Assembly: GCA_016722575.1 (NCBI GenBank)
Contig: JADKIY010000002.1
Location: forward strand, 136,734 to 200,733
Direction: 5' to 3'
Length of the DNA stretch: 64,000 nucleotides
Source: Elusimicrobiota bacterium
Lineage (GTDB): Bacteria > Elusimicrobiota > Elusimicrobia > FEN-1173
Position 1 is the stretch's first letter. Each line of letters opens with the position of its first letter. This document shows, piece after piece, positions 2,086-64,000 of this stretch. The position numbers and the translations under genes are program-made. The notes beneath the pieces were generated by a model. That model worked only from the letters and a program-made list of their open reading frames with translations, did no database searches and had not been told where the DNA came from.

Positions 2086-2101
2086 TAATTTTATGCCGGA
2101 A

Positions 2102-3814: not shown

Positions 3815-3815
3815 C

Positions 3816-6003: not shown

Positions 6004-6005
6004 GG

Positions 6006-6382: not shown

Positions 6383-6388
6383 GGATCC

Positions 6389-45111: not shown

Positions 45112-45201
45112 CGTCGTCCCGGCGTGCCTGTAGCCGGGACCCAGAACGACGTGAGGACGGACCACCCCTTGGATCCCGGCCAAAAACCCGCCGGGATGAC
45201 G
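45112..45201. repeat. Palindromic repeat element, copy C (core only)
   Basis: 'cgtcGtcccggcgtgcctgtagccgggacccagaacgacgtgaggacggaccaccccttggatcccggccaaaaacccgccgggatgacg'. Same terminal inverted repeat and 'ctggatcccggc.aaaa' block. The A>G change keeps pairing as G.U only on the plus-strand RNA. Confidence 0.7.
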
Positions 45202-45289
45202 AAAAGATGGGTCAACCGGTCTCTCACCGGCATGACTCGGCAACGTTGTCCCTTGAATCGAACTGGTATTTTTTTCGGTGCGGTTGGGC

Positions 45290-45317
45290 TTGATCAATTA
45301 ATTTTCCGTGCTATAAT
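45290..45317 (+). promoter_or_regulatory. sigma70 promoter TTGATC-N16-(TGc)TATAAT with extended -10, upstream of the fiber-like gene
   Basis: 'TTGATCaattaattttccgtgcTATAAT'. GGAGG SD 7 nt before the ATG at 45381. Confidence 0.5.
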
Positions 45318-45380
45318 CAAAAAGATTTACATCCCGTTCCTGACCTCAAAGTATTATCAACAGCGATCCAGGAGGCCCGT

Positions 45381-46862: not shown

Positions 46863-46888
46863 TTTATTTTTTAAAAGGGCAATTCAAA

Positions 46889-47485: not shown

Positions 47486-48059
47486 TAACCTCAGAAGGTG
47501 CAAGAATTAATGAAATTAATGTTTCAAATTTCTCTTTAGGTTATACAGGCTTGGGGATTCGTTACTTCCCAACAAGGATTATTTTTATCGAAGGATCAGT
47601 CCTCCAAGTAAGCGGCAACAATAACACCAGCAAATCGTTCAATATTTCGGGAAATTCAGGGATAATTGGCAGTTTTCAGGCAAAGGGCAAAGCTTTACGG
47701 TTCAGATTTGGAACAAAAAGAAAACATACTGAAAATCTTTGTTTCCTCCTCTCTCGGCTTTTCGATTCAAAAACTTGACCTTGCGACTGGCGTGGTTCTG
47801 CGAATGGAATCCCAAACCTATCCAAAACAGTCCCTAATTTCAGCATTGGTGCAACCATGAATATTCAACAAAGACTCGCGATTGGCTTGCAAATTCGATG
47901 CGATCTAAGGAAACTTGATGTCCAAAGAAACAGGCTCAAATCAAAAAGTATATTCCCTCAACCCGTTAGTCATTTCCCCTCAACTCACGTTCTATTTCTA
48001 GTCTGAAACAATAATTGCCCGACAAATCCCTCACCCCCATCTTTCTATTCGCCGCGTTT

Positions 48060-51000
48060 ATGTTGGGCACGGCGCGGTTTGCGCCGCGGTGGGCTTTGCG
48101 GCGGCCGGCCCTGGTGGGGGTTCTTACGGCGGCGCTCGTTGTTTGGGGCATCGTTTCCATGCGGGGGCTCCCGGTGGAGCTCATGCCCAACGCGGCGTCG
48201 GACACCGTCACCGTCACGGTGGGCGTCCGGGGCGGCATGTCCCCCACGGACGTGGAAGCCCTCATCGTCCGCCCCCTCGAAGACGGGTTGGGGGACCTCC
48301 CCCGCCTTAAAACCCTGATCTCCAGCGCCAAAAAAGACCGGGGCGTGGTCACCCTCGATTTCCACCCCGGGGTCGACATGAAGCGCGTCACCGCCGAGGT
48401 GAACGAACGCGTGGACCGCGCCCTGGCCCGCCTGCCCGCCGAAATCGAAAAACCCGTTATCGCCCACTTTGAGGAAAACGACGCCCCCGTCTACATCGCC
48501 GCGGTCCTAAGCGACCGCCTCTCGCCCGAGAGCGTCCGCAAAATCATCGACGACAACATCAAAGACCACCTCCTTCGGACGCCCGGCGTGGCCAACGTGG
48601 AAATCGGCGGTGGGCGGGAAGGCAAGATCCTGGTGGAGCTCAACCGGGATCGCCTGGCCGCCTACGGCCTTTCCCCCCACCAAATCACCAGCCTCCTGGG
48701 CCGCCGGAACGTCGCCCTTCAAGTCGGAAGCGTCACCGGGGACGCCCGCGTGACCCCCGTGCGGCTCGTGGGCACCCTTAAAAACCTGGAGGATTTCCGA
48801 AAGGTCGTGGTGGCCCGGGACCCGTCGGGAGGCACCGTCCGGCTGGAAAACGTCGCCACCGTGACCGACAGCTACCTGGAACCGGAGAGCCTCTCCCGGT
48901 TGAACGGCCAGGCCGCCGTGTCGCTCTACGTTCAAAAAGAATCCTCCGCCAACACCCTGCGGGTCGTGCGTGACCTGGAAAAAGCCTGGGACAAAGCCTG
49001 GCGCAACCTGCCGGCCGGAACGCGGAAAGACCTTCGACACGTGGTCGTCTCCAACCAGGCCCTGGGGATATTGGCGGCGGTTGTTTCGGTTCGTGTGTCC
49101 CTGGCCTGCGGGATTCTGTTGATCCTCCTTTCCCTCTGCCTTGTTGAAAGCGAGCGCCTTTCCACCAAGCGCATGGCGGGCGTCGTCATGGGAATGCTAT
49201 TGGCGCTCATGTGCGTTACCGCCCTGCTTAAAATCAGCGACGCCCGCATGGAGCCCCTCTACTGGATACTTCTGGGGCTATTTCTCCTATTGGCTTTTTT
49301 CGACCCGGACATCCGGCCTGGGCTCATCGTGGCGGGCAGCATGCCCCTTTCGGCGCTTTTCTGCTTTCTGCTCTTCCAGGCCTGCGGGTTGACCCTGAAC
49401 GTCATGAGTCTCTTCGGCCTGGCCCTGGGGCTCGGCATGTTGGTGGACAACGCCACCGTGGTCTATGAACACATCAACGAACTCGGCCTCCCCCCGCCCG
49501 GCCCGGCCGCCCGGGAAGCGGCGCTCAAAGCCACGGAGGAAATGGTCATCCCCTTGATCGGCGGCACCGTCACCAACGCCATCGTTTTCGTTCCCTTTCT
49601 TTTTCTGTCCCGGGAAATCCAGTTGATGTACACCGACGTGGCGGCGGCCGTGGGGGCCTCCCTCTTCGCCTCCCTGGGAATTTCCTTAACGGCGGTTCCC
49701 CTACTGGCCTCGGGACTCATGCTTAAAGGCGCGCCGAAATGGCCGACGTTCCCGGGGCCATTCGAATCCCGGGCCAAAAAATGGGGCGAGGGCTTAAACA
49801 GGTTGGGGACGGTTTTGTGGGAGCGCGGTGCGGCCTTCTCAAAGCGCGCGATGGAGAGAGCCCGGGCCTTTTACGCCGCCCGACTTAAGCCCCGTTTCAA
49901 TTCACTGGCCGGGCACCATTCCCTGGCGGGTTTGCCGCCCTGGGCAGCGCTGGTTTTGTTTGTGGTGTTGTTTGCTGGGTTGTGGGCGCTCGGGGGCAAG
50001 ACGCCGGCCAAGATTTTCTTTCTGCTCACGGCCCTGGGGCTCACGGCGGCGGGCTTCGCGCTTTTCCGGGGTTTTGAGCGCCACTGGCCGCGCCTTTTTC
50101 ACCGTCGGGCGGAAACCCTGGCCGCGGCGCTCTTGCTGGCGGCGGCCGCCACGGCGGTGATTTTTAAGGCCACCGAACGGGACTTTCAAACCTCCGGGGA
50201 ATTGGACGAATTCGTCGTCTTTCTGGAACTCTCCTCGGGGGTCCGGCTGGAGGTGTCGAACGCGGTGGCGGCCGAGGTGGAAAAGATTTTGGACACGGAC
50301 CCGGAGGTGGCCCCCACCATCAAAACGGCCGTCAGCCGGGTGGAAGGTTGGTCCTCCAAAATTTACGTCACCCTCGTTCCCCGGGCCCAACGGCGATTGA
50401 GCGCCGAGCAGGTTCAGGACCTCCTTCGGGTGAAGCTCAAAGGCGTGGGGAGCGACAAGGACCCCAACGCCTTCGTCCACTTCTCCAGCCCCCGAACGGG
50501 GCAGGAAATCACCGTGGAAGTCCTGGGCCCCGACTACGGCGTCTTGGAACAGTTGGCCCAGCAAATTTGCGGCTCACTGGAAAAAATCCCCGGGCTTTCC
50601 GACGTTAAAATGCGCTACCGCCCCGGCCGGCCCGAGGTCTTGGCCGTGGTGGACCCCGACCGGGCGGCCCGGGCCGGCCTTTCCGCCGAGGCCGTGGCCG
50701 AAACCACCCACGCCCTGGTGCGGGGCCTTCGGGCCACCACCTTCCGCACGGGCGGCCGCCAGACGGAAACCATCGTCCGCCTCCGCCGGGAAGATTCCGA
50801 AAACCTGAACGCACTGGCGGACCTGCCCCTGGGCGGCCCCTCGGGCCGCACCCTGCGGCTGACGGAGGTGGCGGACCTCACCATGTCCAAGATGCCCAAC
50901 GAGATTTTCCGGGAAAACAAAGCCCGGCTCATTCAGATCACCGCCAACCGCACGCGCCTCTCCCTGGGCCGGGCCGCCGAGGAAATCCAGGCCGCCCTGG

Positions 51001-51617
51001 ACGCCATGAATTTCCCCCTGGACTACCACGCCGCCCTGGACCGGGAAGTGACGGACATGGCGCGGTCCATCAACCAACTGACAGCGGGCATCTTGGTCAT
51101 GATTTTTCTTGTGTACGTGGTGCTGGTGGTTCTCTTTGAATCCCTGGTGGAACCCTTCATCATCCTAAGCGCCGTCCCTCTCTGCCTGATCGGCGTGGCG
51201 GGCGGGTTGGTCTTTTTCGGCCTTCCTTTAAGCACCGGGGTGCTGGTGGGGGTCATCATGTTGGCCGGGGTGGTGGTCAATAACGCCATTATGCTTTTAG
51301 ACCATCTCAACAACTACACCGACCGGCACGAGCCCCTGGCCGACCGGCTAAAAAAGTCCGTTTTGGCCCGCATGCGGCCTATTTTCCTGACTGCGGGAAG
51401 CGCCGTTTTGGGTTTTCTACCCATGATGCTGGACACCTCCGAAAGCGGCGTTCTGTGGCGGCCATTGGCTGTGACGCTCGTTTTCGGGTTGATTTTCTCT
51501 ACTGTTTTGACACTTTACGTCACCCCCGCCTTGACCCACTTCCTATTAAGGGACATCCCCCAATGGCTGGCCAGACGACGGTTTCTAGCCAAAATAGCCC
51601 CCAACCCCGCCGCCTAG
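48060..51617 (+). CDS. RND-family efflux transporter permease (AcrB/HAE-type), 1,185 aa from ATG (track TTG start at 48015)
   Basis: 12-TM RND architecture with two large periplasmic loops, 'GLALGLGMLVDNATVV', 'AILVMIFLVYVVLVVLFES'. No adjacent membrane-fusion-protein or OMF gene. Confidence 0.85.
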   Translation: MLGTARFAPRWALRRPALVGVLTAALVVWGIVSMRGLPVELMPNAASDTVTVTVGVRGGMSPTDVEALIVRPLEDGLGDLPRLKTLISSAKKDRGVVTLDFHPGVDMKRVTAEVNERVDRALARLPAEIEKPVIAHFEENDAPVYIAAVLSDRLSPESVRKIIDDNIKDHLLRTPGVANVEIGGGREGKILVELNRDRLAAYGLSPHQITSLLGRRNVALQVGSVTGDARVTPVRLVGTLKNLEDFRKVVVARDPSGGTVRLENVATVTDSYLEPESLSRLNGQAAVSLYVQKESSANTLRVVRDLEKAWDKAWRNLPAGTRKDLRHVVVSNQALGILAAVVSVRVSLACGILLILLSLCLVESERLSTKRMAGVVMGMLLALMCVTALLKISDARMEPLYWILLGLFLLLAFFDPDIRPGLIVAGSMPLSALFCFLLFQACGLTLNVMSLFGLALGLGMLVDNATVVYEHINELGLPPPGPAAREAALKATEEMVIPLIGGTVTNAIVFVPFLFLSREIQLMYTDVAAAVGASLFASLGISLTAVPLLASGLMLKGAPKWPTFPGPFESRAKKWGEGLNRLGTVLWERGAAFSKRAMERARAFYAARLKPRFNSLAGHHSLAGLPPWAALVLFVVLFAGLWALGGKTPAKIFFLLTALGLTAAGFALFRGFERHWPRLFHRRAETLAAALLLAAAATAVIFKATERDFQTSGELDEFVVFLELSSGVRLEVSNAVAAEVEKILDTDPEVAPTIKTAVSRVEGWSSKIYVTLVPRAQRRLSAEQVQDLLRVKLKGVGSDKDPNAFVHFSSPRTGQEITVEVLGPDYGVLEQLAQQICGSLEKIPGLSDVKMRYRPGRPEVLAVVDPDRAARAGLSAEAVAETTHALVRGLRATTFRTGGRQTETIVRLRREDSENLNALADLPLGGPSGRTLRLTEVADLTMSKMPNEIFRENKARLIQITANRTRLSLGRAAEEIQAALDAMNFPLDYHAALDREVTDMARSINQLTAGILVMIFLVYVVLVVLFESLVEPFIILSAVPLCLIGVAGGLVFFGLPLSTGVLVGVIMLAGVVVNNAIMLLDHLNNYTDRHEPLADRLKKSVLARMRPIFLTAGSAVLGFLPMMLDTSESGVLWRPLAVTLVFGLIFSTVLTLYVTPALTHFLLRDIPQWLARRRFLAKIAPNPAA

Positions 51618-51688
51618 CCGTTTGTTACAACTGATTTACTTTTCGTTCATCACGTTTTTATCCTCTCCGTGATATACTCTGCGCTACC

Positions 51689-52285
51689 GTGAAACTCCGT
51701 CTCAAACTACTCTCCATCAGTATTTTAATTTCAGCCCCCCTCCGGGGCGAAATTCACGACCCGACCGGCTCCGGTCTGCGGGTGACGGACGTGGTGGGGT
51801 TCTCCGGTCAAATCATCTCAAGCACCACGAGCCTTCGATCCGCCTCCAGCATCGGCGTTCTTGGCTCCACCATTACTCTTCACGCCACCTCGGGACTCGA
51901 ACTGCGCACCGGACTTTGGGGCGGCGGGCCCTCGCTCAAATCGACTGCCCTCGAACAAACCATCATCTTTGGCGCGCCTCGAACCGCCCGCCTCGTGATC
52001 CCCCCGGGAGCCATCGCGCGGGACTACGCTGTCTTCACCGGCACCAGCCCCGCCACGGAGCCCTTGAACGCTTCCCCCGCTATTCTCCAAACCGCCACGC
52101 GCAATCTGGCGCGGGCCAGTTCCTACAGCAACCCGGCCAACGGCCGTTTGTGGGAAATCTACGTTCAAGACGATAACGGTATTAAGCAATCCGGCGCTCT
52201 CCTTCGCTCCGCAACGCTCACACTTCCCTTTGACGACGTCGACCAGGACGGGCACGTGGACGGCAGCGCGCCCCCGTTCGCGTGA
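51689..52285 (+). CDS. Secreted hypothetical protein (signal peptide); probably the N-terminal part of one ancestral gene with 52282..52734
   Basis: GTG start preceded by an extended -10 'gTGaTATACT'. 'MKLRLKLLSISILISAPLRGE'. Stop overlaps the next start (GTGA). Confidence 0.55.
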   Translation: MKLRLKLLSISILISAPLRGEIHDPTGSGLRVTDVVGFSGQIISSTTSLRSASSIGVLGSTITLHATSGLELRTGLWGGGPSLKSTALEQTIIFGAPRTARLVIPPGAIARDYAVFTGTSPATEPLNASPAILQTATRNLARASSYSNPANGRLWEIYVQDDNGIKQSGALLRSATLTLPFDDVDQDGHVDGSAPPFA

Positions 52286-52734
52286 AAACTCTTTCCATCT
52301 GGTGGCTAGACGAAGTCCATTCGCTGTGGGTCAAAGTCCCGAACCCGACGATCAACACTTCCAGCCAAACCGTCACGGCGCTCATTCCCCACTTTTCGGT
52401 CTACGCCGTCATGGGAGCGCCCTCCTTCGACCCCTCGGAATCCTTCGCCTTCCCCGTGCCCTGGCGGCCGGCGGGGCCCAACGCCGGAAGCGCGGCGGGC
52501 CAAACGGGCACCTTGGCGGGCGGCATCACCTTCACCAATTTGCCGGACGCCTGCACCATCCGCCTTTACACCCTATCGGGCGGGTTGATCCGGGAGATCA
52601 ACCACAGCGTGGGCCTCCAGGAAACCTGGGACGGCCGAAGCGCCGACGGCGAGAATGTCGCCAGCGGCACCTATGTCTGGGTCGTGTCCGCCAACGGCTC
52701 CAAGAAAACCGGCAAACTGGCGGTCATCCGATGA
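52282..52734 (+). CDS. Protein ending in a T9SS-type / FlgD-Ig-like C-terminal beta-sandwich sorting domain; lacks its own signal peptide
   Basis: C-terminus 'ITFTNLPDACTIRLYTLSGGLIREINHSVGLQETWDGRSADGENVASGTYVWVVSANGSKKTGKLAVIR' (Por_Secre_tail/FlgD_ig pattern). One extra C in the C5 tract 52271-52275 would fuse it in frame to 51689..52285. Confidence 0.6.
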   Translation: MKTLSIWWLDEVHSLWVKVPNPTINTSSQTVTALIPHFSVYAVMGAPSFDPSESFAFPVPWRPAGPNAGSAAGQTGTLAGGITFTNLPDACTIRLYTLSGGLIREINHSVGLQETWDGRSADGENVASGTYVWVVSANGSKKTGKLAVIR

Positions 52735-53891
52735 TCGGCCTTCGCCGATTTTCCGGCAAAATTCTTTTTGGAGGCGCGATCGCGTTTCTTGGCTCGACGG
52801 GTTGGGCTTCCGATGGAAGCACCGGGGCGGAATTTCTAAAGATCGGCGCCGGAGCGCGGCCCGCGGCCCTGGGCGACACCCAGGCGGCGCTGTCCGAAGG
52901 CGCCCTGGCGGCCCTCTGGAACCCCGCGGCCCTGGGCGGCCTTTCCTCGGCCGAAATCAGCCTCACCCACAACCGGTGGTTTGAAGGCATCCAGGACCAG
53001 CGCTTTGTGGCCGCCGTCCCGACCAAGTCGGTCGGCACCCTGGCCCTGGCCTACGAACGCCTGGCCATCAACGACTTTCTCTCCTTCGACGCCCAGGGCA
53101 CCAACACCGGGGCGGTCAACTCCGGCGACAGCGTGATTTCCCTGGCCTGGGGGCGAAACCTCGCCCAGGGCGCCACCGGCGGCAGCGGCCTCTACGCCGG
53201 ATTGGCCGCCAAAAGCATCAACGAAAAAATCGCGGGCGTCAGCGCCTCGGGCTTCGCCTTGGATTTTGGATTTCTGTTCCGCCCCTGGGGCCTCACCGCC
53301 CAACGCCTCCCCTGGGTTCGCCGCTCCAGCCTGGGCTTCTACGCGAAGAACCTGGGCCAGGGCCTCAAATTCGACGAGGAAAACGCCCCCCTTCCGACGG
53401 AATACGACCTGGGCGCGGGCTACAGCCAACCCCTGGGCGGCGACATTCTTAACCTCGGCCTCGATTACCACCTGGTGACCGGCGAAACCGCCGCCGTGAG
53501 CGCCGGCATGGAATATTGGATGAAAAACCTTCTGGCCCTCCGCCTGGGCTACCGGACTTCCGACGTGAACGGCCTGGGTTTCCGCGCCGGGGCGGGTTTC
53601 AAGGTCGGCAAAATCCAGGCCGACTACGCCTGGGCCGCCACCGGCGAAGATTTCGGGCCCTCCCACCGGATCACTCTCACCTACCGTTTTGGTCCCGCCG
53701 CCGTGGCCCCCGGCCTGGCCGCCGACCTGGTCGACGACTACATCGCCCGGGGCAAGCGCCACATGGAACTGGGTCTCTACGACCGCGCGATTTTGGAATT
53801 CAACGAAGCGCTCTCCATCCACCCCGGCGACGAATCGGTCCGGGCCCTGCTGATGGAATGCGGCGAGAAAATGGAGAAAGCGGCCCCGTGA
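52731..53891 (+). CDS. Outer-membrane beta-barrel protein of the PorV/PorQ (UPF0164, FadL-superfamily) type
   Basis: ATG overlapping the previous stop (ATGA). Signal peptide, N-terminal 'GAEFLKIGAGARPAALGDTQAALSEGALAALWNPAAL' signature, alternating beta-strand pattern, C-terminal aromatic 'LTYRF'. Confidence 0.65.
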   Translation: MIGLRRFSGKILFGGAIAFLGSTGWASDGSTGAEFLKIGAGARPAALGDTQAALSEGALAALWNPAALGGLSSAEISLTHNRWFEGIQDQRFVAAVPTKSVGTLALAYERLAINDFLSFDAQGTNTGAVNSGDSVISLAWGRNLAQGATGGSGLYAGLAAKSINEKIAGVSASGFALDFGFLFRPWGLTAQRLPWVRRSSLGFYAKNLGQGLKFDEENAPLPTEYDLGAGYSQPLGGDILNLGLDYHLVTGETAAVSAGMEYWMKNLLALRLGYRTSDVNGLGFRAGAGFKVGKIQADYAWAATGEDFGPSHRITLTYRFGPAAVAPGLAADLVDDYIARGKRHMELGLYDRAILEFNEALSIHPGDESVRALLMECGEKMEKAAP

Positions 53892-55129
53892 GCCGTTCCG
53901 CCGTTTTCGGCGCGGCGGCCCTCTTCCTTTTACCGTCGATCGCCCAAACCGCTCCCCCCGTTCCCGAGGCGGCCATCGCCCCGGCCAACGATCTCAAACA
54001 AATCCTGAAAACGGCCCGGCAATTGGAATTGAAGGGCGATTACCGCGCCGCCTGCCGGACCTACCTCTCCGCCCTCCCCGATCACGCCGCCGACCTTCGA
54101 ATCCAAACCGGTCTCAAGCGCGCCGCCGGCGCCCTGGCCCGGGACATGGACGCCCAACGGCAAAAAGCCACGGACCGCTACGTGCGCGACGCCCAAATGA
54201 GCGCCGACCGGTCCTACGCCTACCAGAAAAGCCAGCGGGACCGGGTCGTCAAAGCGAAACGGTTGATTTCGAAGGGCCAATACCTGGCCGCCTCGGACGC
54301 GCTGAACACGATATTGGAGGAATCTCCCGGCATGGACGAAGCCCGGGACCAGTTGGACCGCGCCACGCGGCTCATGGCGGGTCGGCTCAAGCGCGGCAAG
54401 TTTCCGACGGTGCAACACCAGGCGGTCTGGGAAGGACTTGTCTTTTACAATCGCGCGGATTTTGAATCCGCCGCCCGCTCCCTGCGCCTGGCCCTCAGCG
54501 CCGGTTCGATTCCGACCGATCTCGCGGACGCCCGGGTGGAAAATTACGCCGTGCTGGCCGAGAAGAAACAGGCCCTGGCCCTCTGGCGCCAGGAGCGGCA
54601 AATCCTCCTCCTCAAAGCCGAGAACGCCAAGAAAGACGGCGACCTGGCCGCGGCCAAGGCCTCCTACGAACGAATTTTGAATAAAGACCCCGGCGACGCC
54701 GACGCCCGAGCCGGCCTGGAAAACCTGGGCTCCGTCGTGAAAGCCGTCGAAAAAGCCGTGGTCAAAGAAGTGCGCCGCAAGGAAGTCCCCGACCTCCTGG
54801 CCAAGGGCACCATCGACATGGTCCACGAACGTTACACCGACGCCCTGGAATCTTTTCACGCCGTTTTGCAGTTGGAACCCGACAACGCCGAAGCCAAGGA
54901 ACAGATCAACGAAGTGCAGCGGCTCATGAAAGGGCGCAAGCTCTACGTCCCCCCCGTGAACGTCAAGAGCGCCGCCGACGATAAATACCGGGAAGGCCTC
55001 AAACTCTACGGCAACGAACAATATTCCGAAGCCCAGGCCGCCTTTGAAGAAGCCCTCCAAATCGACCCCAAGCACGACGACGCCCGCCAAGCTCTCAAAC
55101 GCTTAAAAGACCAAGCCAAGCAACCGTAA
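53888..55129 (+). CDS. Secreted tetratricopeptide-repeat protein
   Basis: GTG overlapping the PorV-like stop (GTGA). Signal peptide 'VSRSAVFGAAALFLLPSIAQTAPP'. Multiple TPR-like helical pairs, with a C-terminal 'YSEAQAAFEEALQIDPKHDDARQAL'. Confidence 0.7.
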   Translation: MSRSAVFGAAALFLLPSIAQTAPPVPEAAIAPANDLKQILKTARQLELKGDYRAACRTYLSALPDHAADLRIQTGLKRAAGALARDMDAQRQKATDRYVRDAQMSADRSYAYQKSQRDRVVKAKRLISKGQYLAASDALNTILEESPGMDEARDQLDRATRLMAGRLKRGKFPTVQHQAVWEGLVFYNRADFESAARSLRLALSAGSIPTDLADARVENYAVLAEKKQALALWRQERQILLLKAENAKKDGDLAAAKASYERILNKDPGDADARAGLENLGSVVKAVEKAVVKEVRRKEVPDLLAKGTIDMVHERYTDALESFHAVLQLEPDNAEAKEQINEVQRLMKGRKLYVPPVNVKSAADDKYREGLKLYGNEQYSEAQAAFEEALQIDPKHDDARQALKRLKDQAKQP

Positions 55130-55193
55130 ATCGGCTCCCGTTTTTCCCCGCCGTTTGGATGTAAAATCATTGGAAACTATCTGTTTTTACTGA

Positions 55194-55222
55194 TTGACAT
55201 CTTTTATATTCCGTAATATAGT
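55194..55222 (+). promoter_or_regulatory. Near-consensus sigma70 promoter TTGACA-N17-TATAGT for the giant YD-repeat gene
   Basis: 'TTGACAtcttttatattccgtaaTATAGT' in an AT-rich intergenic region. ~57-nt leader with 'aggaaacgaggg' RBS region before the ATG at 55288. Confidence 0.55.
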
Positions 55223-55287
55223 AGTAGCAACTCACCCAGGGCTGCATACTTCTTTTAAATACTAATTCGACGCGAGGAAACGAGGGC

Positions 55288-58200
55288 ATGGCGACCGCCA
55301 AACCTCTGTTGATTCGACCCCTATTCCTTCTGGCCCGGCGCCTACGCCGGGTCGGTTTTGTTTGTGGGCGGTTGGCCTTCCCCGCCCTCCGTTTATCGAC
55401 GGCGGGGGCCTTCCTTTTCGTCACCCTGGCGACCCCCTTCTCCCAGGCCCGGGCCCAGAGCCGGGCGTCCTTCTCCTCCCGCCAATACGACGAGTTTTCC
55501 ACTTCCCGGGAAGACGGCGACTACTTCAGCCCCGACCGCCTTCGCCAACGCCTCCACACCTTGGACACCATGGTGGAGGGCCTCAACAACCGTTTCGCCC
55601 GGCTCCAGGGCCGTTCCTTGGACCGCGGCGCGTCGGAGAACCTGACGCCCCAGGTGTTCCAAGCCGCGCTGGAACGATTCCAGGCGGCCGCCCAATTCTC
55701 CTCGGAAATTGAAATGAAGCGGGCCCAGTTCTCCCAAACCCTGGCCTCCGCCGGGGGCTTCCAGTTCCGTTCCTACCCCGACGGCCGCCGAATGTGGTTT
55801 AAAAACGGCCGAGTCCACCGCATCGAAAACGAAAAAATCACCGACGGCCAGGGCCGGGTCGGCCACCAGGACGTGGTGGACATGGCCTACGACAAACGAG
55901 GGAATCTCCTTTCCTCCAAAACCATCCTCCGGGACGCCGACGGGCATCTGACCACCAAAAACTGGGTCGGGACCTACGCCGACGGGCCCAACGGGAAATC
56001 CGTTCTGGCCTCCTTCGCCGAAACCACCTGGGACCCCCTGGGGAACGAAACCAAAATCGAACGGACCGGCCTGACCTACGGCGACGGCGGGAAAAATGCG
56101 ATCTCCTATCAGGAAACGACCACCGACAAATACGGGCAGACCGCCCGGCGCACCGTCACGGGCTCCTCCTACGATGGGGACGGAAACCTTCTTTCCTTTC
56201 ACGAAGAATCCGAGGAAAACGGCGTCGCCCTGTCCAAGGATTGGTCCGGCGCCGTCTACCAGAAATACCAACGGGACGGCAAAGACGCCTGGCGCCTGAC
56301 CTCCTACAGCGAAACCACGACCGACGCCCAGGGGCGCCAAAGCCGCCGGGAGTGGGGCGGCGCGACCTACGACGAAAACAATTCCTTAAAGACCTACACC
56401 CAGAAAGACACCGACTCCTCCGGCGAAAGCCGGGTTCTGACCTGGGGCGGGGCCCGCTACGACGCCCGGGGCAACGTGACGGAATTTACGGAAACCCGGA
56501 CGGGTCCGGAGGGAGAGTCGCGGCGGACCTGGCGGGGCGGCCAATACGACGCCCACAGCCGCCTGACCGATTTTGAGGAGTTGAACGTCGACGCCCAGGG
56601 CGTCTCCACCAGCCGCCGCTGGTCGGGGGCGGAATACAACGCCAAAGGCGACCTTCTCCGATATCGCGAAACCGACGTGGACGGCCACGGTTTGGAATCG
56701 GTTCGAACCTGGACGGCCGGTTCCTACAACGACGGACGCCTCACCGCTTACTCCGAAACGACCGTGGACGACCGGGGCCACGCGGCCCTTCGTCAATGGA
56801 ACGGGCTTTACGGCGCCGACCGTCGGTTGGGCTCCTTCAGCGAAGAGTCCACCGATGCCCTGGGGAACGTCACCCGACGGGGCCAGGAGGGATTGACCTA
56901 CGATTCCCTGGGCCGCGCCCAGGCCTACGACGAATGGTCCGAGGACGCCTTTGGCCAGCGAACGGCGTCCCGTTGGACCGCCGCGGGCTACGACCTCAAG
57001 GATCGCCTCACCGGTTACCAATTAATCGAAACCCTTCCCTCCGGCCGAACCATGACGACCGCCCGAAGCGCCATGACTTACGACTCCGCCGGGCGGTTGG
57101 CGCAATACGACGACGCCCTGACGGCCCAGGGAGGAAATTCCCCCGACGCCACGGGGCGGCAGACGGTCCGGGTCCTGTCCTTTGATGCCTTTGGCCAGGC
57201 CACGCTGACCCAAACCACCTCCACCAACGCCCTGGGCGAAGCGACCGAGCGGACCCACCAAGCGGAATACGACGGCCGGGGCCGGTTGGCCTCCACCGCC
57301 GACACCCTCCGGTCCGCCGACGGCGCGCCGGACGTCGCCCGTTGGTCCGTCGACGCCTTTGACGAATACGACCGCGCCACGGCCACCCGGGAAATCACGG
57401 GCGCGGGCGAAAGCGAAAAAACAAAAGTTTGGTCGGGCCGGTTCGATTCCAAAGGACTCGCGACGGAATCCACCGAAACGACCACCGACGCCCGGGGCCT
57501 TTCCATCACCACCCGCCTCTCCGACGCCGTCCACAACGCCCAGGGCCGGTTGACGGATTCCCTGCAAGTCACCCAACGCTCGGACATGCCCGGCGTGACC
57601 ATCGAAACCCGAACGACCGAGCGAACCTACGACCGGGCCGGCGCCGTGACCGGCGGGCGGGAAGTCACCCGAACCACCGGGGAATGGAACGGCCAACCCC
57701 TGGATGTCACCACCGTCCGCCGGACGGAGGAAGCCGTTCTGGCCGACGGGTTCGTCACGGGCTATCGGCAAACCGTCCTCACGACCGGCGTCTCGGACGG
57801 GAGATCCCTTCACACCCAGGATGAAACTCGCGTCGCTTTGGGCGCGAAGGGAGATCGCACCGAGACCACCCATCGGTTGGCCTTTGGGAAGGACGAAATC
57901 CTTGAAACCGACGCCTATTCGACCCTGCGGCGAACCAACCTGCTGGCGGACCTGGCCGGCCGCGCCCTTTCCTACACTGAGGAACGGTCCGAAGATTTCT
58001 CCCCCTTGGCCAAAACAACGACCCGGCGGGAAAACCGCTATTCGGCCGCGGGAGTCCTGACAGGGTTCACCGAGGACTCCGTGGACGGCCTGGGGCTCCG
58101 CTCCCACAGCGAAACCATCGGCCTGGTGGAGAACGCCGCCGGCCAACAGATCGCCAGTCGGGAACGCATCACGCACCCCGGCCAAACGGTGGTGGTGGAC

Positions 58201-61200
58201 GAGATCGCCAAATCCGAAATAGTCTATTCCCCCCTGGGCCAATTGGCTTCCTACCGGGAACAAACCCTTTCGACCGGGCCCGGGCTTTCCAACGCCGCCG
58301 ACGCCCGTAAAACCCTGAGCTACGACGGGGCCGGCCGAGTCGCCGTCTCGAGCGAAACGGGCACGCGAAACGGCGCGGCCTATACCACCAACACCTTCAA
58401 CGCCGCCTTCGATTTGAAAGGCCGCCCAGTTCATTCCGTGGAAGAATCCACGGGCCCCGGCGGTCCCTCCGACATCGAACGGTCCGCCGTCGCCTTCGAC
58501 GATTTCGGCCGGCGGGTTTCCTACCACGAAGAAGGCGTTGCCGGCGGGTCCATGGTCCATCAAACCGTCGCCACGGAATACGACGCCCTGGGCCGGGAGG
58601 CGGCCACCGAAACCACCGGTTTCCGGGAATCGGGCGCCTTCCGCGAGCGGAGCGAAACCACGGGGATCAACGATTTGGGCCAATCGACCGGCCGGCGGGT
58701 CACGGGGCATTCGGCCGCCGAAGGCGATTACGCTTATTCCCAGACCGGACAGGTTTACGGCCTGGCCGGTGATTTAATTTCGTTTGATAAAGAACGCACC
58801 GATGTCGACGGCATCACCCGTTCCCATTGGGCGTCCAAAGGCGCCGACGCCCGGGGCCGCTCCCTGGGTTATACCGAGACCGGGTCGGTCGCCAAAGACG
58901 GCCAGCCCCTTTACGAGTTCACGACCGAGCAAACGGCCGGGGCCTACACCCTTCAAAACCAAGCGGCCTCCTACGACGCCGTCACCACCAAACGATTCTC
59001 CAACGGCCCGGTGGAAACCGCCGCCACCCATTGGACCGACGGGGCCTACGACGCCCAGGGCCGCTTGACGGGCTTTAAAGAAACCCAAACGACGACGTTG
59101 ACCGACAACGGCCAAACGAAAACGTCCACGACCTCCCGCCTTCGGGAAAGCGCCACCTACTACGACGACAACGGGCCCGGCCATCTCAAAGGCCAGTTGG
59201 CCTCCACGGTCGAAGTCCTGCTGGACGATTTGTCGCCGGAAAAAGCCCGGCGGGTCCGAACCGCCGGCATGACCTACGACGCCGAGGGCCGTTTGATCGG
59301 CGCCGAATCCACGACCGGCGAGGTGAACCGGCTGAAGGACGCGCTCCGGCGCCTGGGCGATCTGCTGGGCGGCGGCGCGAAGGCGGGCGGAAACATTTTG
59401 ACCGGCCTGCGCCAACTTTTGGAGAACACCGCCGACCTAACCTCCGACGTTGTGGCCTGGGCAAAGGACAACCTGGTTTCCCCCACCCAGGTCTTCCTGG
59501 AGGGCCTGGGCGCCTGGCTGGCCGACGTGGCGGGTGGCAAAGGCGCCGCCAATCCCGCGCTGGACCGCGAAGCCGTGTCGGAACTGGTTTATCGAATTCA
59601 CGAAAAGGCCGGCGGCGCCAACCTCGAGGAGATCCCCGCGGGATTTCAGTCCGCCGCCGCGGCGTTGGGGACCTTCGACCAAACGCTCACGGTGACCCGC
59701 GCCGTGGACAAAGTGTTTGACCCCCAGGGCCGGGCCACCGCCTGGCGCGAGATCGCCCTTTCCGCCTCGGCCCCGGACCGCCCGGCCGTCACCGACGTTC
59801 GCGTCACCTACAAGGACAATTCCCGACTCCTCTCGACCTACGCCGCCCGTACCGTGGAAGGCGAAAAAGTGACCCAGCTTTTCCGGGACCATTACGCCTA
59901 CGACGCCTTAAACCGCGGTCTCTACCGCGAAGCGACCTTCGAGGGCGAGGACCTCGCTGTTCTCTCCGTTGAAAAAGGGAATGTTTCCACCACCGGCGCC
60001 CAGTGGGGCTCGCTAAAAGGCGAGGCGCGCTCCCTGCTCCTCTCGGACATATTGGAGGGCAGCACGGAAATCATCGGCAAGGTGGATTTCAAACGAATCG
60101 ACGACGCGACCTTTGACGCGGCCGGGAACATGCTGGACATTTTCGGAACCCGAACGACTCGGGGAATTGTTTTGTCGGATTTCGCCCAAGGGCAAGCCAT
60201 CCCAAGCGATTACGGCGCCATGGTCGAATCCGCGCTGAAGGCGGCCCAGGCCGAATACGACCAATCCCTCGCCGCCCTCGCCGAAATCGCCGACGCGGCG
60301 GAAGCCCAAGCCTCCCTTCAAAAAAACGCGGTCGCCCGGGACCAAGGGGCGGTTCAGGACGCCGACGACTTGTTGAAAGCCGCCATCGCCGCCAAGGAAG
60401 ACGCCCTGGCGCGGCTGGCGCAGGCCGGCAAACGAAAATCCGAACTGGAGGCGGCCGTGGCGCAGTTCGTTTCCGACCGCAAGGAAATCGACCGTCAATC
60501 AATCACCCCGCGAACTCCCATTGCGCCCATTGTTTCCCCCGAATACGTGAAAGACGGCAAAACCTATGTGGACGTCACGACCACCCAGTGGTACCAAGTT
60601 CTCAAATTCGACGACGCCGGCAACTTGGTTAAGACCTTTGTCCAACGCCTGACGACGGATCGCAATCTGGTCGGGGGCCATGGCGGCGGGCCCGTCGACC
60701 GCACCGTGACCGAATCCGAAGCCGATCCGGGGAGTCTTTTCGGATTTTCGTCTGGGAATCGAGGAACCGAGATATTGTTAAAAGCCGACGACGGCCACGG
60801 CGCCTGGGCCGACAAACTTCCCCAAGGGGACGCCCCCAGCTTCCAAATCGACGGCAAGCGCCTTTTCTCTTTGAGTCCATCCGCCGTCGCCGCCCTCACC
60901 CGGTTGGCCGACCTTCACCGATCCCTCGCCGCCACGGTCGCCGAAACCGACCAATCCACCACGAATTTCAATGCGGCCGTTATCGCCGTTAACACCGCCG
61001 CCGCCGACCTGCAAACGGCCAACGCGGCCTTGGCCGTTTCCCAGTCGGCCCTGGACGCCGCCCAAAGCGCCGCGCAATCGGCCCAATCGGAACTTCAAAA
61101 CATAAAAGTCCAAGGATTGTCCGGCCTCGAAAACAAAAAAATCGCCATCGCGGGCGAATTTGCCGCCAACGCCGCCGCCCTGGCTAAAACGCTTTCGGGT

Positions 61201-64000
61201 TTGGATTTGCTCCTTAACGGATCCCTCCGACTGACCGAAGCGGACGCCCTGGCCCTGGTCACCCGGGGGACCTTCGACCACGCCGGACAATCCCTTTCCC
61301 TGGCCGCCTTGGCTTCCGCCAAGGTCAAGACGAGTCTTAACAACGAGGAACACTTCGCCCAGTTATCCGTCGCCAATCCTCAAAAATCCGTTTCCCTTTC
61401 CTGGCAAGGCGAATTGATGTTGAACGGAGCGCCATTGGCCAAGAGCGCCCTGTCCGCCGCCTTGACCCCCAACGCCTTGGCGGCCCCGCCCGCTGCCGAC
61501 GGTTCCGTGGCCGGCCTTTCCGTCGCGGAGGGCGGCCGCTTAACCATTAACCGAACCCTGGCCCAAACCCAGGACGCCGCCGGGCGGATCACCGGCCAAA
61601 ACACCGAAACCCTCACCCTCTCCCGCACCGACGGCAAAACGACGGCCCGCCGAACCCTGCAAGACACCGCGGGGCAACAATACGACGCCCGGGGCCAGTT
61701 GATCGGCTACGTCCGAACCACCCGGGAGGACGGCAAAGACCCGGTGGTGGAAACTCTCACGGGCGCCGAGTACGACGACAGCGGCCGCCAGACCTCCAGC
61801 GATGTCCGCGTGACGGAGAGTTCCCCCAACGGGCTTCTCTCCCGCAACGTCCACACCGATGTTCTTTCTATTAACGCCGCCGGCCAAGCCGTCCGAAGCC
61901 GCCGCGTGGTCGACTCCGGCGGGCAAATCACCGTCACCCAGGACATGGCCGACACTCTTTTTGACGGTGAAGGTCGGGCGGTTTTTGCCTTGTCCGAATC
62001 CGTCGGCTCGTCCCGGGAATCCTGGGAACGGGCGGGCGGTAACTTCGCGGCCCTGACCGGGGAACGTACCCGCTCGGCCGGTTGGACCACGGCCTTCGAT
62101 GACCGCGGCCAGGCCCTGTCGACCCTTCGGGTTTCAACGCCCAACTTTGGCGGAACCGCCCAGCATTTCGTCATTGAAACAAACCGAAACACCTACGACG
62201 ACGCGGGACGACTGTCTCTCTCCACCACCGACTCGACGGAATTCGGCTACGACCCCAAAACCCGCTCGTCCCTCTACAAATCCGGTCGCGAGGAACGGCG
62301 GGCCCTCGCTTTCACGGCCGGGGGCCAGGCCCTCCGCGAACGGATCACCCGGACGGAGAACGGCCTGACGAGCGTCACCGAGGACGAAGCGGACCGGTTC
62401 TTTGACGCCCAGGGCCGAGTGGTTCAAACCCAAACCGTGTCCACCGACGCCCAGGGCCTTAAATCCCATTCCCTTTGGAAAGCCCTGGCCTTCGACGCCG
62501 ACGGACGGTCTCTGCGGTTCGAGCGAACGACCACCGATGCCGCGGGCCTCAAAACCGTCGAGCGATCCGCCGAGGACGCCGCCTACGACGATCGGGGCCG
62601 ATTGACGAGCCAATCCCTGGACCTGACCGAATGGAACGACCAGGGCACCCAATCCCGCTCCTACCGCAAAACCGAAGATCAATTCGACTACGACGGCTTC
62701 GGCCGTGTATTGAGCCTGCGCCAGACCACCGATAAAACCGACGCCAACGGCGCGGCGTTGCGCGACACCAAAACCCTGGCCTATCGCTACGATCAACAGG
62801 GCCGGGCCGTCAATACGTGGACCGACGGAATCGAAACCGCCGGCGGCCAAACCCGGGATTATCACTACGGCACCGCCGTCCTTGCCTTCGACGCCCAGGG
62901 CCGCAATGCCCGAACGCGAACCACCACCATTCAAGACGGTCTTCGAACCGACCGGTTCTCGACCTCCGACATTTCGTACGACGCCCAGGGCCGCGTAATT
63001 AAGAGCCGCGACCTGGTCCACCAATGGGGCACGGGCCTGGACGCCTACACGAGCGAAGAGACGACGAACAGCCTCTTTGACGACTGGGGACGGGCTGTGG
63101 ACTCCCTTTCCATCGTGACCAACGGGGCGTTGAAAACCGTGTCCCATTCCCACGACTTGGCTTTCGACGCCAACGGGCGGCTCACGCGGCAGACGATCGA
63201 CGTTCACGAGTCCTCCACCCTGCCCGGCATCGAATTGACCGCCGACCGCACCATCACCCAAACGGACATGAATTACGACGCCATCGGCAATCTCGTGGAT
63301 TACACGAAGGTCGTTAAGGAAGGGGAATTGGAAGCGACCAGCCGGCCGGCCCTTCTGGAATACGACAAGAACGGGCGCGCGGTTGTTTCCTTGGAGCGCG
63401 TCACCGACAACCTTGGCCGGGACGAGATCGTCGGCAACGTGGGTTCCCAATACAACGCCCTGGGCCAGCTGATCGGCGGTCAGTCCATCACGGTCAAAGG
63501 CAACCCGGAGGCGTTGAACACCAAACAGCTTTCGGGGTTGGTCGCGGCGATTTTGGACGGGGATATGCAAACGGCCAAGGGACAAGCCCTTGTGAAATCC
63601 CTGGGCCTGGAGGGCCTGTCGGCCAACCGCACCGTTTCCCCCAACCGGTACGACGCCCAGGGGCGGTTGGTTTACACCGACACGGTGATGGACAAAGCCG
63701 GCTGGGCCCTGGCGGACGTGGCGAAAACCGAAGTCCTTTTCGATCAAACCATCTCCCGCGGCGACGCTTGGTGGTATGACGCGCAATTGAATGAGCGGTC
63801 CAAAGCCCTGGAGGCCCAGGGGTTCAAAATCACGGATAAAACTTTCCGGACCGAAGGAAACACCAGCGATCATCGCTACTGCTACGCCGCCCTCACTTAC
63901 ACCCGGCAAGTGAAGACTTACAAAGACACCCACGAGCGCTCCACCACCGCCGTGACGGCCTTTGACGCCTTAAACCGCCCCATCGCCCAAACCATCGCCA
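55288..64000 (+). CDS. Giant secreted YD/RHS-repeat protein (>=2,904 aa, runs off window) with central Ala/Gln-rich coiled-coil segment
   Basis: Single open frame from the ATG at 55288 to the window end (not in the track because it is partial). Signal peptide 'MATAKPLLIRPLFLLARRLRRVGFVCGRLAFPALRLSTAGAFLFVTLATPFSQA'. Dozens of 'YDxxGRLtxxxExxtD' YD repeats, reflected in the recurring nucleotide motif 'tacgacgcccagggccg'. The ~60200..61400 region reads 'AAQAEYDQSLAALAEIADAAEAQASLQKN...LQTANAALAVSQSALDAAQSAAQSAQSELQN' (coiled coil). Confidence 0.85.
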   Translation, partial: MATAKPLLIRPLFLLARRLRRVGFVCGRLAFPALRLSTAGAFLFVTLATPFSQARAQSRASFSSRQYDEFSTSREDGDYFSPDRLRQRLHTLDTMVEGLNNRFARLQGRSLDRGASENLTPQVFQAALERFQAAAQFSSEIEMKRAQFSQTLASAGGFQFRSYPDGRRMWFKNGRVHRIENEKITDGQGRVGHQDVVDMAYDKRGNLLSSKTILRDADGHLTTKNWVGTYADGPNGKSVLASFAETTWDPLGNETKIERTGLTYGDGGKNAISYQETTTDKYGQTARRTVTGSSYDGDGNLLSFHEESEENGVALSKDWSGAVYQKYQRDGKDAWRLTSYSETTTDAQGRQSRREWGGATYDENNSLKTYTQKDTDSSGESRVLTWGGARYDARGNVTEFTETRTGPEGESRRTWRGGQYDAHSRLTDFEELNVDAQGVSTSRRWSGAEYNAKGDLLRYRETDVDGHGLESVRTWTAGSYNDGRLTAYSETTVDDRGHAALRQWNGLYGADRRLGSFSEESTDALGNVTRRGQEGLTYDSLGRAQAYDEWSEDAFGQRTASRWTAAGYDLKDRLTGYQLIETLPSGRTMTTARSAMTYDSAGRLAQYDDALTAQGGNSPDATGRQTVRVLSFDAFGQATLTQTTSTNALGEATERTHQAEYDGRGRLASTADTLRSADGAPDVARWSVDAFDEYDRATATREITGAGESEKTKVWSGRFDSKGLATESTETTTDARGLSITTRLSDAVHNAQGRLTDSLQVTQRSDMPGVTIETRTTERTYDRAGAVTGGREVTRTTGEWNGQPLDVTTVRRTEEAVLADGFVTGYRQTVLTTGVSDGRSLHTQDETRVALGAKGDRTETTHRLAFGKDEILETDAYSTLRRTNLLADLAGRALSYTEERSEDFSPLAKTTTRRENRYSAAGVLTGFTEDSVDGLGLRSHSETIGLVENAAGQQIASRERITHPGQTVVVDEIAKSEIVYSPLGQLASYREQTLSTGPGLSNAADARKTLSYDGAGRVAVSSETGTRNGAAYTTNTFNAAFDLKGRPVHSVEESTGPGGPSDIERSAVAFDDFGRRVSYHEEGVAGGSMVHQTVATEYDALGREAATETTGFRESGAFRERSETTGINDLGQSTGRRVTGHSAAEGDYAYSQTGQVYGLAGDLISFDKERTDVDGITRSHWASKGADARGRSLGYTETGSVAKDGQPLYEFTTEQTAGAYTLQNQAASYDAVTTKRFSNGPVETAATHWTDGAYDAQGRLTGFKETQTTTLTDNGQTKTSTTSRLRESATYYDDNGPGHLKGQLASTVEVLLDDLSPEKARRVRTAGMTYDAEGRLIGAESTTGEVNRLKDALRRLGDLLGGGAKAGGNILTGLRQLLENTADLTSDVVAWAKDNLVSPTQVFLEGLGAWLADVAGGKGAANPALDREAVSELVYRIHEKAGGANLEEIPAGFQSAAAALGTFDQTLTVTRAVDKVFDPQGRATAWREIALSASAPDRPAVTDVRVTYKDNSRLLSTYAARTVEGEKVTQLFRDHYAYDALNRGLYREATFEGEDLAVLSVEKGNVSTTGAQWGSLKGEARSLLLSDILEGSTEIIGKVDFKRIDDATFDAAGNMLDIFGTRTTRGIVLSDFAQGQAIPSDYGAMVESALKAAQAEYDQSLAALAEIADAAEAQASLQKNAVARDQGAVQDADDLLKAAIAAKEDALARLAQAGKRKSELEAAVAQFVSDRKEIDRQSITPRTPIAPIVSPEYVKDGKTYVDVTTTQWYQVLKFDDAGNLVKTFVQRLTTDRNLVGGHGGGPVDRTVTESEADPGSLFGFSSGNRGTEILLKADDGHGAWADKLPQGDAPSFQIDGKRLFSLSPSAVAALTRLADLHRSLAATVAETDQSTTNFNAAVIAVNTAAADLQTANAALAVSQSALDAAQSAAQSAQSELQNIKVQGLSGLENKKIAIAGEFAANAAALAKTLSGLDLLLNGSLRLTEADALALVTRGTFDHAGQSLSLAALASAKVKTSLNNEEHFAQLSVANPQKSVSLSWQGELMLNGAPLAKSALSAALTPNALAAPPAADGSVAGLSVAEGGRLTINRTLAQTQDAAGRITGQNTETLTLSRTDGKTTARRTLQDTAGQQYDARGQLIGYVRTTREDGKDPVVETLTGAEYDDSGRQTSSDVRVTESSPNGLLSRNVHTDVLSINAAGQAVRSRRVVDSGGQITVTQDMADTLFDGEGRAVFALSESVGSSRESWERAGGNFAALTGERTRSAGWTTAFDDRGQALSTLRVSTPNFGGTAQHFVIETNRNTYDDAGRLSLSTTDSTEFGYDPKTRSSLYKSGREERRALAFTAGGQALRERITRTENGLTSVTEDEADRFFDAQGRVVQTQTVSTDAQGLKSHSLWKALAFDADGRSLRFERTTTDAAGLKTVERSAEDAAYDDRGRLTSQSLDLTEWNDQGTQSRSYRKTEDQFDYDGFGRVLSLRQTTDKTDANGAALRDTKTLAYRYDQQGRAVNTWTDGIETAGGQTRDYHYGTAVLAFDAQGRNARTRTTTIQDGLRTDRFSTSDISYDAQGRVIKSRDLVHQWGTGLDAYTSEETTNSLFDDWGRAVDSLSIVTNGALKTVSHSHDLAFDANGRLTRQTIDVHESSTLPGIELTADRTITQTDMNYDAIGNLVDYTKVVKEGELEATSRPALLEYDKNGRAVVSLERVTDNLGRDEIVGNVGSQYNALGQLIGGQSITVKGNPEALNTKQLSGLVAAILDGDMQTAKGQALVKSLGLEGLSANRTVSPNRYDAQGRLVYTDTVMDKAGWALADVAKTEVLFDQTISRGDAWWYDAQLNERSKALEAQGFKITDKTFRTEGNTSDHRYCYAALTYTRQVKTYKDTHERSTTAVTAFDALNRPIAQTIA

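Follow-up and report, generated by a model that had tools for sequence, protein, structure and literature searches.

Giant long-YD repeat proteins of Elusimicrobiota that appear to be secreted and probably carry exchangeable C-terminal toxin regions

The stretch of DNA analyzed here (64,000 nucleotides, hereafter the window) comes from an Elusimicrobiota bacterium (GenBank assembly GCA_016722575.1, contig JADKIY010000002.1, positions 136,734 to 200,733 of the forward strand). Its downstream end holds a giant gene on the + strand, whose reading frame opens with an ATG at position 55288 and continues for 2,904 codons without a stop up to the window edge at position 64000. Given the base composition, the probability of a stop-free frame of this length is ~4e-36. 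An earlier note on this DNA had described a giant protein of more than 2,900 amino acids (aa) and had considered that an in-frame stop might have been missed. No such stop was found, and the open reading frame (ORF) is real: a database search returned the full protein, MBL0349606.1 (P0001 in the following), which has 3,369 aa and is 100% identical across the part in the window, residues 1 to 2,904. It is encoded on a 1.10-Mb contig and listed at NCBI as 'MAG: RHS repeat protein [Elusimicrobia bacterium]'. Homologous proteins are referred to below by P numbers and the genomic loci that encode homologs by L numbers. Between positions 54001 and 64000, AT skew was strongly positive (+0.13 to +0.23) and GC skew was negative on the coding strand of the giant gene, exceeding the skew across most of the window. 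We presume that this is due to a repeat composition rich in Thr, Asp, Glu, Arg, and Ala.

The giant gene has its own sigma-70-type promoter on the + strand, as had been proposed. It consists of TTGACA (55194 to 55199), a 17-nucleotide spacer, and TATAGT (55217 to 55222), and it is the sole 11/12 match to this arrangement in the 6 kb from 51000 to 57000. Locus L004 encodes a giant protein that is 89% identical at the aa level, in an open frame. There, a stretch of ~125 nucleotides that begins just above the -35 box and ends at the ATG matches the window at ~97% identity and the promoter is invariant, whereas the sequence more than ~125 nucleotides upstream of the ATG is unrelated. Thus, the promoter moves with the giant gene and is under constraint. 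A putative ribosome-binding site, GAGGAA (55274 to 55279, + strand), assigned by consensus and likewise conserved in L004, lies 8 nucleotides before the ATG. Within the first 26 codons of the gene is an 11-bp hairpin (55330 to 55364, + strand; 9 GC) followed by TTTTGTTTGT, which is nearly invariant in L004. An attenuator or another RNA element that overlaps the region encoding the n-region of the signal peptide is one possibility; coding constraint alone is another.

The protein begins with what reads by eye as a long signal peptide (aa 1 to 56; 55288 to 55455, + strand) that has an extended basic n-region, a hydrophobic core (aa 37 to 51), and an A-R-A cleavage motif (aa 54 to 56). Equivalents of the signal-peptide-like segment at aa 37 to 56, also read by eye, are present in P0002 to P0008 and in P0010. 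The N-terminal secretion signal that is characteristic of polymorphic toxins therewith appears to be in place, and the protein appears to be secreted, in agreement with the earlier note. The signal peptide is followed by a conserved head module (aa 57 to 197; 55456 to 55878, + strand) that has no Pfam match. Residues 101 to 300, comprising the head and the first repeats, are among the best conserved parts of the protein (0.51 to 0.52 identity).

Two long blocks of repeats, which had been noted previously, were confirmed with a hidden Markov model (HMM), with motif counts, and with autocorrelation. The iterative HMM detected 60 repeat units: 33 between aa 198 and 1338, 24 between aa 2129 and 3233, and 3 that are scattered. 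The modal unit is 30 aa long and has the core G-x-x-Y-D-x-x-G-R-L-x-x-Y-x-E-T-T-x-D-x-x-G. The YD-type motif was observed 30 times, compared with 0.27 +/- 0.51 times in shuffled sequences. Glycine and aromatic residues gave autocorrelation peaks at lags of 29 to 30 and 59 to 60 in the N-terminal block and at a lag of 30 in the C-terminal block, with none in the region between the blocks. The N-terminal block (55879 to 59301, + strand), with its 33 HMM-detectable units of ~30 aa, is predicted to form a continuous antiparallel beta-meander. The C-terminal block occupies 61672 to 64000 on the + strand (aa 2129 to 2904, 17 detectable units); its other 7 units lie past the window edge, up to aa ~3233. 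The segment from aa 150 to 1345 is exactly 1,196 aa long in five homologs that are just 34 to 44% identical to the window's protein. Such constant length would speak for a defined, closed object.

AlphaFold2 modeled the segment from aa 150 to 1345, with four homologs in the alignment, at a mean predicted local distance difference test (pLDDT) score of 82.9 and a predicted template modeling score of 0.39. This model contains 77 strands (mean length, 10.8 residues; 70% of the model), most of them connected by turns of 5 residues, and no helices other than two short ones of 3 to 5 residues at the termini. The two-strand period in the model has a median of 30 residues. A Foldseek search of the model against the Protein Data Bank (PDB) gave 16 matches at E<=0.001. 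The top 14, all with a probability of 1.00 and with E values of 1e-25 to 3e-14, were Rhs effectors, teneurins, a teneurin-like protein, and the Tc toxin complex TcB-TcC; the remaining two were DDB1 propellers with probabilities of 0.20 to 0.30. Template modeling (TM) scores were low (0.2 to 0.26) and global superposition was poor. The model thus suggests a local architecture like that of YD shells, with a curved, hollow sheet and a predicted fold in the RHS/teneurin/Tc class. A relation of this structure to RHS shells is indicated, whereas identity of the two and closure into a cocoon are unproven. The RHS/teneurin/Tc type that the earlier note had proposed is therefore retained for the local predicted fold.

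The predicted fold, together with the NCBI name and the YDxxGRL turn, would be expected of a canonical RHS/YD polymorphic toxin, in which a closed cocoon holds a C-terminal toxin that is released by an aspartyl protease of the RHS core, with delivery by a type VI secretion system (T6SS) or a Tc-like partner. The sequence tests point away from this explanation. Neither the window part nor full P0001 had a Pfam match, RHS_repeat (PF05593) included, at E<=1. The one NCBIfam match was a weak one to TIGR01643 (YD_repeat_2x), which scored 11.7 bits (cutoff, 15.8) over a single stretch at aa 3167 to 3193. RHS_repeat was seen in one family member alone, at 19 bits against a cutoff of 22. NCBIfam gave no match in P0001 to the RHS-associated core (TIGR03696), and the pattern PxxxxDPxG was absent from all 11 family members, P0001 to P0011. 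A phmmer search of the whole protein against all PDB sequences found no significant match, a search of PHROGs found none, and a profile of the repeat unit reached the Rhs structure 8qja only at E=4.4, the two having just the 10-residue YDxxGRL turn in common. In 8qja this turn recurs every ~21 aa, compared with 30 aa in the window's protein. The assignment to YD/RHS repeats in the earlier note is therefore not upheld, and the YD-repeat HMM searches that it had recommended yielded no match that passes. It follows that no passing model stands behind the database name 'RHS repeat protein', which should be read with caution.

An exhaustive HMMER search of 1.84 billion representative proteins with a profile of aa 150 to 1345 points in the same direction. 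It returned 300 proteins at E<=1e-3, 141 of them at E<=1e-10. Canonical RHS proteins are very abundant, with numbers far above 300. Thus, the profile apparently misses them. Many of the 300 matches cover solely profile positions ~4 to 83, always at about aa 120 to 200 of their own sequence; among these, ten short proteins that have the head module alone in common were searched with Pfam and proved to be mostly unannotated fragments. The Pfam survey of the window's genes also revealed no PAAR, VgrG, T6SS, Tc, TpsB, or type I secretion system gene and no wall-anchoring module. Membership in the canonical RHS proteins is thus already largely refuted, and we consider that explanation highly improbable. 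By the defining features tested, the protein falls outside the canonical RHS proteins, although its construction and use resemble theirs.

The two repeat blocks are separated by a middle region (aa 1335 to 2130) that AlphaFold2 modeled at a mean pLDDT of 65. All of its parts lie on the + strand. A linker (59302 to 60189) consists of low-confidence helices (aa 1339 to 1469) and then YD-like beta-hairpins (aa 1470 to 1634), with one repeat match at aa 1477. It is followed by a predicted helix of 89 residues (aa 1642 to 1730; 60211 to 60477; block pLDDT ~81 to 89), a variable region with pLDDT below 50 (aa 1731 to 1863; 60478 to 60876), a second predicted helix of 107 residues (aa 1864 to 1970; 60877 to 61197; block pLDDT ~77 to 89), and a connector modeled as mixed alpha/beta (aa 1971 to 2128; 61198 to 61671). 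Both long helices fall inside the helical segment that had been placed at 60200 to 61400 from sequence. Residues 1601 to 2000 are the least conserved part of the body (0.18 to 0.25 identity). A fold search of the middle region against solved structures gave no match at E<=0.001; the best, nonsignificant matches were the antiparallel coiled-coil hairpins of MukB, JetC, and colicin Ia. We infer that the two helices may pair in antiparallel fashion, forming a stalk that, at 1.5 Å per residue, would be ~13 to 16 nm long. The middle region could then be a projecting stalk with a variable tip, which would plausibly serve in target recognition.

All named family members and all genomic loci found belong to Elusimicrobia/Elusimicrobiota. 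P0001 is collinear over aa 33 to 3359 with P0002, P0003, and P0004 (~41% identity) and with P0006 (32%). The relatives, however, run on past the position of the P0001 stop. The extension is part of the same ORF in P0002, P0003, P0006, L006, and L007 and is divided between two adjacent ORFs in L002. The extensions add 1,400 to 1,900 aa that comprise hydrophobic glycine-rich segments, a coiled coil, and short 7-aa tandem repeats. At equivalent positions in P0002, P0003, and P0006 there are 3 to 4 perfect tandem copies of a 7-aa unit, with a different unit in each protein (SEARVRD, RSGARQT, and GGVEVKR).

The boundary between body and extension is sharp. For example, when P0003 is compared with P0004 and the ORF that follows it, identity is 85 to 98% up to aa ~3350 and 18 to 41% from aa ~3400 on. 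The break comes after a conserved junction motif, S-Y-M-x-G-(Q/K)-N-x-G-D-x-M-M. Beyond the motif is a hydrophobic helix, which reads ...SDIAVAVV..., and then one of at least two types of extension module (AYQAARQGISINDFEAH or RQGISTHDLGLFG) that are distributed independently of the similarity of the bodies. Such abrupt divergence at a junction, combined with shuffled extension types, is what characterizes polymorphic toxin systems. NAD+ is the target of both RES and TNT toxins. A RES domain was found in L002 (30.9 bits) and in L007 (32.7 bits; cutoff, 23.2), and a TNT domain is located at the extreme C-terminus of L007 (93.3 bits; E=1.3e-26). RES has been noted as a domain of polymorphic toxins (Zhang et al. 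2012, PMC3482391). Some giant genes are overlapped or directly followed by small genes, which encode DUF6966 in L002 and DUF8255 in L001 and are candidate immunity genes only. A conserved body with abrupt C-terminal divergence at a fixed junction is therewith seen in sequences of relatives rather than of strains of the source organism. The comparison of tips across related genomes that the earlier note had recommended accordingly found relatives that are polymorphic at the C-terminus, with RES and TNT tips.

Two further observations were made on the wider family. P0158, a protein of 2,761 aa from an Elusimicrobia metagenome-assembled genome (2.76-Mb contig) that is annotated as an alpha/beta hydrolase (PF05990), is 47% identical to part of the extension profile, which suggests that the extension modules also occur in combination with different enzymatic tips. 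In L003, the giant gene for P0006 is preceded, ~3.4 kb upstream, by a second and larger ORF (positions 1 to 6564) that extends beyond the end of the locus and whose product is given as 8,401 aa. Both giant genes are on the same strand with three smaller genes between them, and giant genes are thus clustered in that genome.

The copy in the window ends differently from these relatives. After the repeats, the tail of P0001 has a G/P-rich linker, a hydrophobic segment (aa ~3293 to 3311), the junction motif NYLQGKNMGDTMMM, and a stop at aa 3369. The end reads ...NYLQGKNMGDTMMMDVA-PRSEPL-stop, 6 codons past the last residues that align with the first hydrophobic helix of the relatives. An RHS core or an effector domain had been anticipated at the C-terminus, and the tail has neither; the variable toxin tip that was expected beyond the window is present in relatives, as RES and TNT, but is missing from the annotated P0001, where the stop comes shortly after the junction. 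Two of the outcomes that the earlier note had named as refuting its view, no YD-repeat match that passes and a C-terminus without core or effector, were thus observed. A scan of genome contigs with the C-terminus of P0001 gave no match. A metagenome scan with an alignment of the C-terminal module recovered L007 only, a relative at 52%. Neither of two homology searches that used extension sequences as queries brought up a protein encoded on the contig of P0001. The same searches also missed P0002, the parent of the query, and the other known carriers of extensions, so that the word prefilter clearly limits their sensitivity for such Gly/Ala-rich sequence. Because P0001 stops just past the junction, its toxin region may be absent, downstream, or hidden: P0001 may be a disarmed or truncated copy, its extension may be in the following ORF as in L002, or the extension may be obscured by an assembly indel.

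One explanation for this ending is that the gene is a decaying remnant, a copy truncated when its toxin cassette was lost or recombined. Decay would fit the stop just past the junction, the length of P0001 (400 to 1,900 aa shorter than full-length relatives), and two further genes of the cluster that look split across frames (see below). These apparent splits could equally be assembly indels, however, and the 3,369-codon frame is intact; moreover, L004 keeps 89% aa identity, an open frame, and ~97% of the promoter region. We consider a pseudogene very unlikely.

It could also be that the protein is a giant surface adhesin or structural fiber, in which a spiral of beta-sheet acts as a rigid spacer and the coiled-coil tip binds a substrate or a partner cell. 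An end without a toxin domain, a variable stalk tip, a strong and conserved promoter of its own, and outer membrane and TPR proteins encoded nearby would all suit an adhesin. However, the protein stops just past the toxin junction and not at a distinct adhesin terminus, and the body continues into an extension in 5/5 relatives with a readable 3' end (four in one ORF and L002 in two adjacent ORFs), 2 of which bear RES and/or TNT in the extension. Furthermore, the exactly conserved length of the N-terminal block argues against a spacer of variable length. An adhesin is therefore unlikely.

We regard it as probable, though well short of assured, that the gene encodes a Sec-exported giant from a small Elusimicrobiota family in which a conserved delivery body is combined with an exchangeable C-terminal toxin region. 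In the mechanism that we propose, the giant protein would be exported by Sec and then reach the cell surface, where the tip of the stalk would contact the target. The hydrophobic glycine-rich segments after the junction motif might then insert into the membrane, and the distal RES and/or TNT domains would intoxicate the target cell by degrading NAD. The small downstream genes may act as immunity genes.

Several observations weigh against this interpretation. P0001 as annotated has no extension, and Pfam and NCBIfam searches of the full protein found no toxin domain in it. The tips of several relatives also lack a recognizable toxin domain. At 1,400 to 1,900 aa, the extensions look too large to be held in a shell, and the logic of delivery must then differ from that of RHS proteins. 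Finally, the Pfam survey found no known secretion system for such giants in the window.

Several genes of the cluster lie upstream of the giant gene, all on the + strand, and might have a part in its export. Immediately upstream are a gene for a PorV/PorP-like outer membrane beta-barrel with C-terminal TPR (52731 to 53891; PorV score, 21.9 bits; cutoff, 27) and a gene for a TPR protein (53858 to 55129). Counterparts head the cluster in L002 (62% identity for the PorV-like gene and 53% for the TPR gene). In L004 they are not upstream of the giant gene, where the neighbor differs. Because the sequence upstream in L004 is unrelated, the PorV-like and TPR genes are not obligate neighbors. The earlier note had placed a PorV-like and C-terminal-sorting-domain module upstream of the giant gene; such genes exist, with subthreshold scores, but their functional tie to the giant gene is weak, given that the neighbor differs even in L004, with its 89% identical protein.

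The sorting-domain matches concern a 150-aa ORF at 52282 to 52734, which has no signal peptide and subthreshold matches to type IX secretion system (T9SS) C-terminal domains (CHU_C, 23.6 bits, and FlgD_ig, 24.3 bits; cutoff, 27). It overlaps by 4 nucleotides, in another frame, a 198-aa ORF with a signal peptide (51689 to 52285), and the two may be one secreted protein broken by a change of frame. T9SS cargo was considered for the giant protein and rejected, in that the giant has no such C-terminal domain and the domain-like ORF is a separate small gene.

Farther upstream is a gene for a protein with a phage tail collar domain, split over two frames (45124 to 46862): ORFs 45124 to 45801 and 45741 to 46862, with the switch near 45700 to 45730. 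Its counterpart is a single gene of 559 to 573 aa in L001 and L002 and one ORF of 490 aa in L006. The split could be an assembly indel, a pseudogene, or a programmed frameshift. Since two genes of the cluster look frame-split (at ~45.70 to 45.73 kb and at 51689 to 52285/52282 to 52734), an indel-prone assembly is plausible. A lipoprotein-like CsgG-family ORF of 198 aa (46889 to 47485; PF03783, 53.9 bits) comes next, in a segment (46000 to 48000) where GC content falls to 0.468, compared with ~0.63 elsewhere; the segment may have been acquired horizontally. The cluster also includes an AcrB-like RND transporter (48015 to 51617) that is 27 to 28% identical to the AcrB-like gene of the relatives.

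The genes for collar protein, OEP (TolC-like), RND adaptor, AcrB-like pump, and giant protein occur in this order in L001 (2218 to 9642), L002 (2215 to 9822), and L006 (35 to 7338), whose giant proteins are just ~40% identical to that of the window. No match to the OEP and adaptor genes of L001 and L002 was found in the window. To our knowledge, RND pumps are not protein exporters. We considered whether the presence of the pump reflects nothing more than synteny. Although the gene order is found in three loci, the pump in the window is only distantly similar to its counterparts and has neither OEP nor adaptor as neighbors, which leaves the link unexplained. Otherwise, the window holds mostly ordinary chromosomal genes (PheT, Der, GpsA, HflX, lipid-A acyltransferase, and glycoside hydrolases).

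A more far-reaching proposal, and one that we offer as a long shot, is that the long-YD giants form an undescribed class of contact-dependent toxins that are delivered in a manner of their own. Instead of the cocoon, autoprotease, and T6SS of RHS proteins, they would have a YD-type spiral scaffold, a projecting coiled-coil sensor, a new junction, a membrane-inserting region, and RES and TNT NADase warheads in tandem, and they would be exported via the collar/OEP/adaptor/RND set or via the PorV-like and TPR proteins. If so, this would be a new route for the export of giant proteins across the outer membrane in a deep-branching diderm phylum.

YD/RHS shells are widely used to package toxins and occur in the Rhs effectors of bacteria, in insecticidal Tc toxins, and, as teneurins, in animals. 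The long-YD family appears to arrive at a like sheet from a different repeat length, without the autoproteolytic core and with a stalk and a large region for NAD-degrading toxins. Confirmation would broaden the definition of YD-shell toxins and supply a new junction motif for polymorphic-toxin mining. It would also make antagonism between bacteria testable in the mostly uncultured Elusimicrobiota, as well as the export of proteins of 3 to 5 kaa (thousand aa) without type V secretion systems or T6SSs. Giant secreted polymorphic toxins in general are well known; what is noteworthy here is the altered repeat, the missing core, the insertion of a stalk, and the junction motif.

Comparison with known systems is most direct for the RHS/YD shells (Rhs, 8qja and 8uy4; TcB-TcC, 6h6e and 4igl; teneurin, 6fb3). 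The likenesses are a continuous meander of antiparallel beta-hairpins with a YDxxGRL-type turn and, at the level of the family, a conserved body followed by variable C-terminal toxins. The window's protein differs in that its period is 30 aa rather than ~21, no curated HMM passes, and its two repeat blocks are split by the coiled-coil stalk. Its predicted strands average ~11 residues. Canonical YD strands are shorter than this. In addition, the family lacks the RHS core and the DPxGL motif, there is no T6SS or Tc partner in the window, and the region after the junction, at 1,400 to 1,900 aa with hydrophobic segments, would be too large for encapsulation.

A second comparison is with the giant proteins of Omnitrophota, in which very long predicted antiparallel beta-helix tubules (more than 1,000 aa), RHS-like and with regularly interspersed exterior alpha-helices, have a proposed role in cell-cell antagonism and a conserved locus like that of a type II secretion system (West-Roberts et al. 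2023, bioRxiv 10.1101/2023.11.21.568195). Both are giant proteins with a very long continuous antiparallel beta-sheet, from a related radiation of candidate phyla. It is conceivable that the Elusimicrobiota protein is likewise an open hollow tubule, a long single-stranded antiparallel beta-helix that acts, in predation or episymbiosis, as a conduit or a device for penetration. However, the N-terminal block lacks the interspersed exterior helices of the described tubules, the proteins have 3 to 5 kaa and not tens of kaa, and the giant genes are accompanied by RND/OEP and collar genes rather than a type II-like locus. We regard a tubule of this kind, compared by description only, as quite unlikely.

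For the stalk, an analogy is offered by colicin Ia, whose helical hairpin carries a receptor-binding tip; in the window's protein, two predicted helices of ~90 to 107 residues likewise flank a tip region. This is analogy only: the match had E=1.0, which is no evidence of homology, and the tip in the window's protein is unmodeled.

CdiA-type toxins of contact-dependent inhibition offer an analogy in function only. CdiA is a giant Sec-dependent protein in which recognition of the target takes place in the middle of the body and a junction motif precedes a polymorphic toxin, with an entry region and small genes downstream. Membership in the CdiA/TpsA proteins was rejected, as there is no TPS domain, FHA repeats (Pfam/NCBIfam), or VENN motif and no gene for a POTRA/ShlB-type TpsB/CdiB in the window. 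The repeat of the window's protein is predicted to form an antiparallel YD-type sheet, in contrast to the parallel beta-helix of CdiA. Nevertheless, the long-YD giants would resemble CdiA in plan, with a mid-body tip that may recognize targets, a junction followed by a polymorphic toxin, a hydrophobic region, and small downstream genes.

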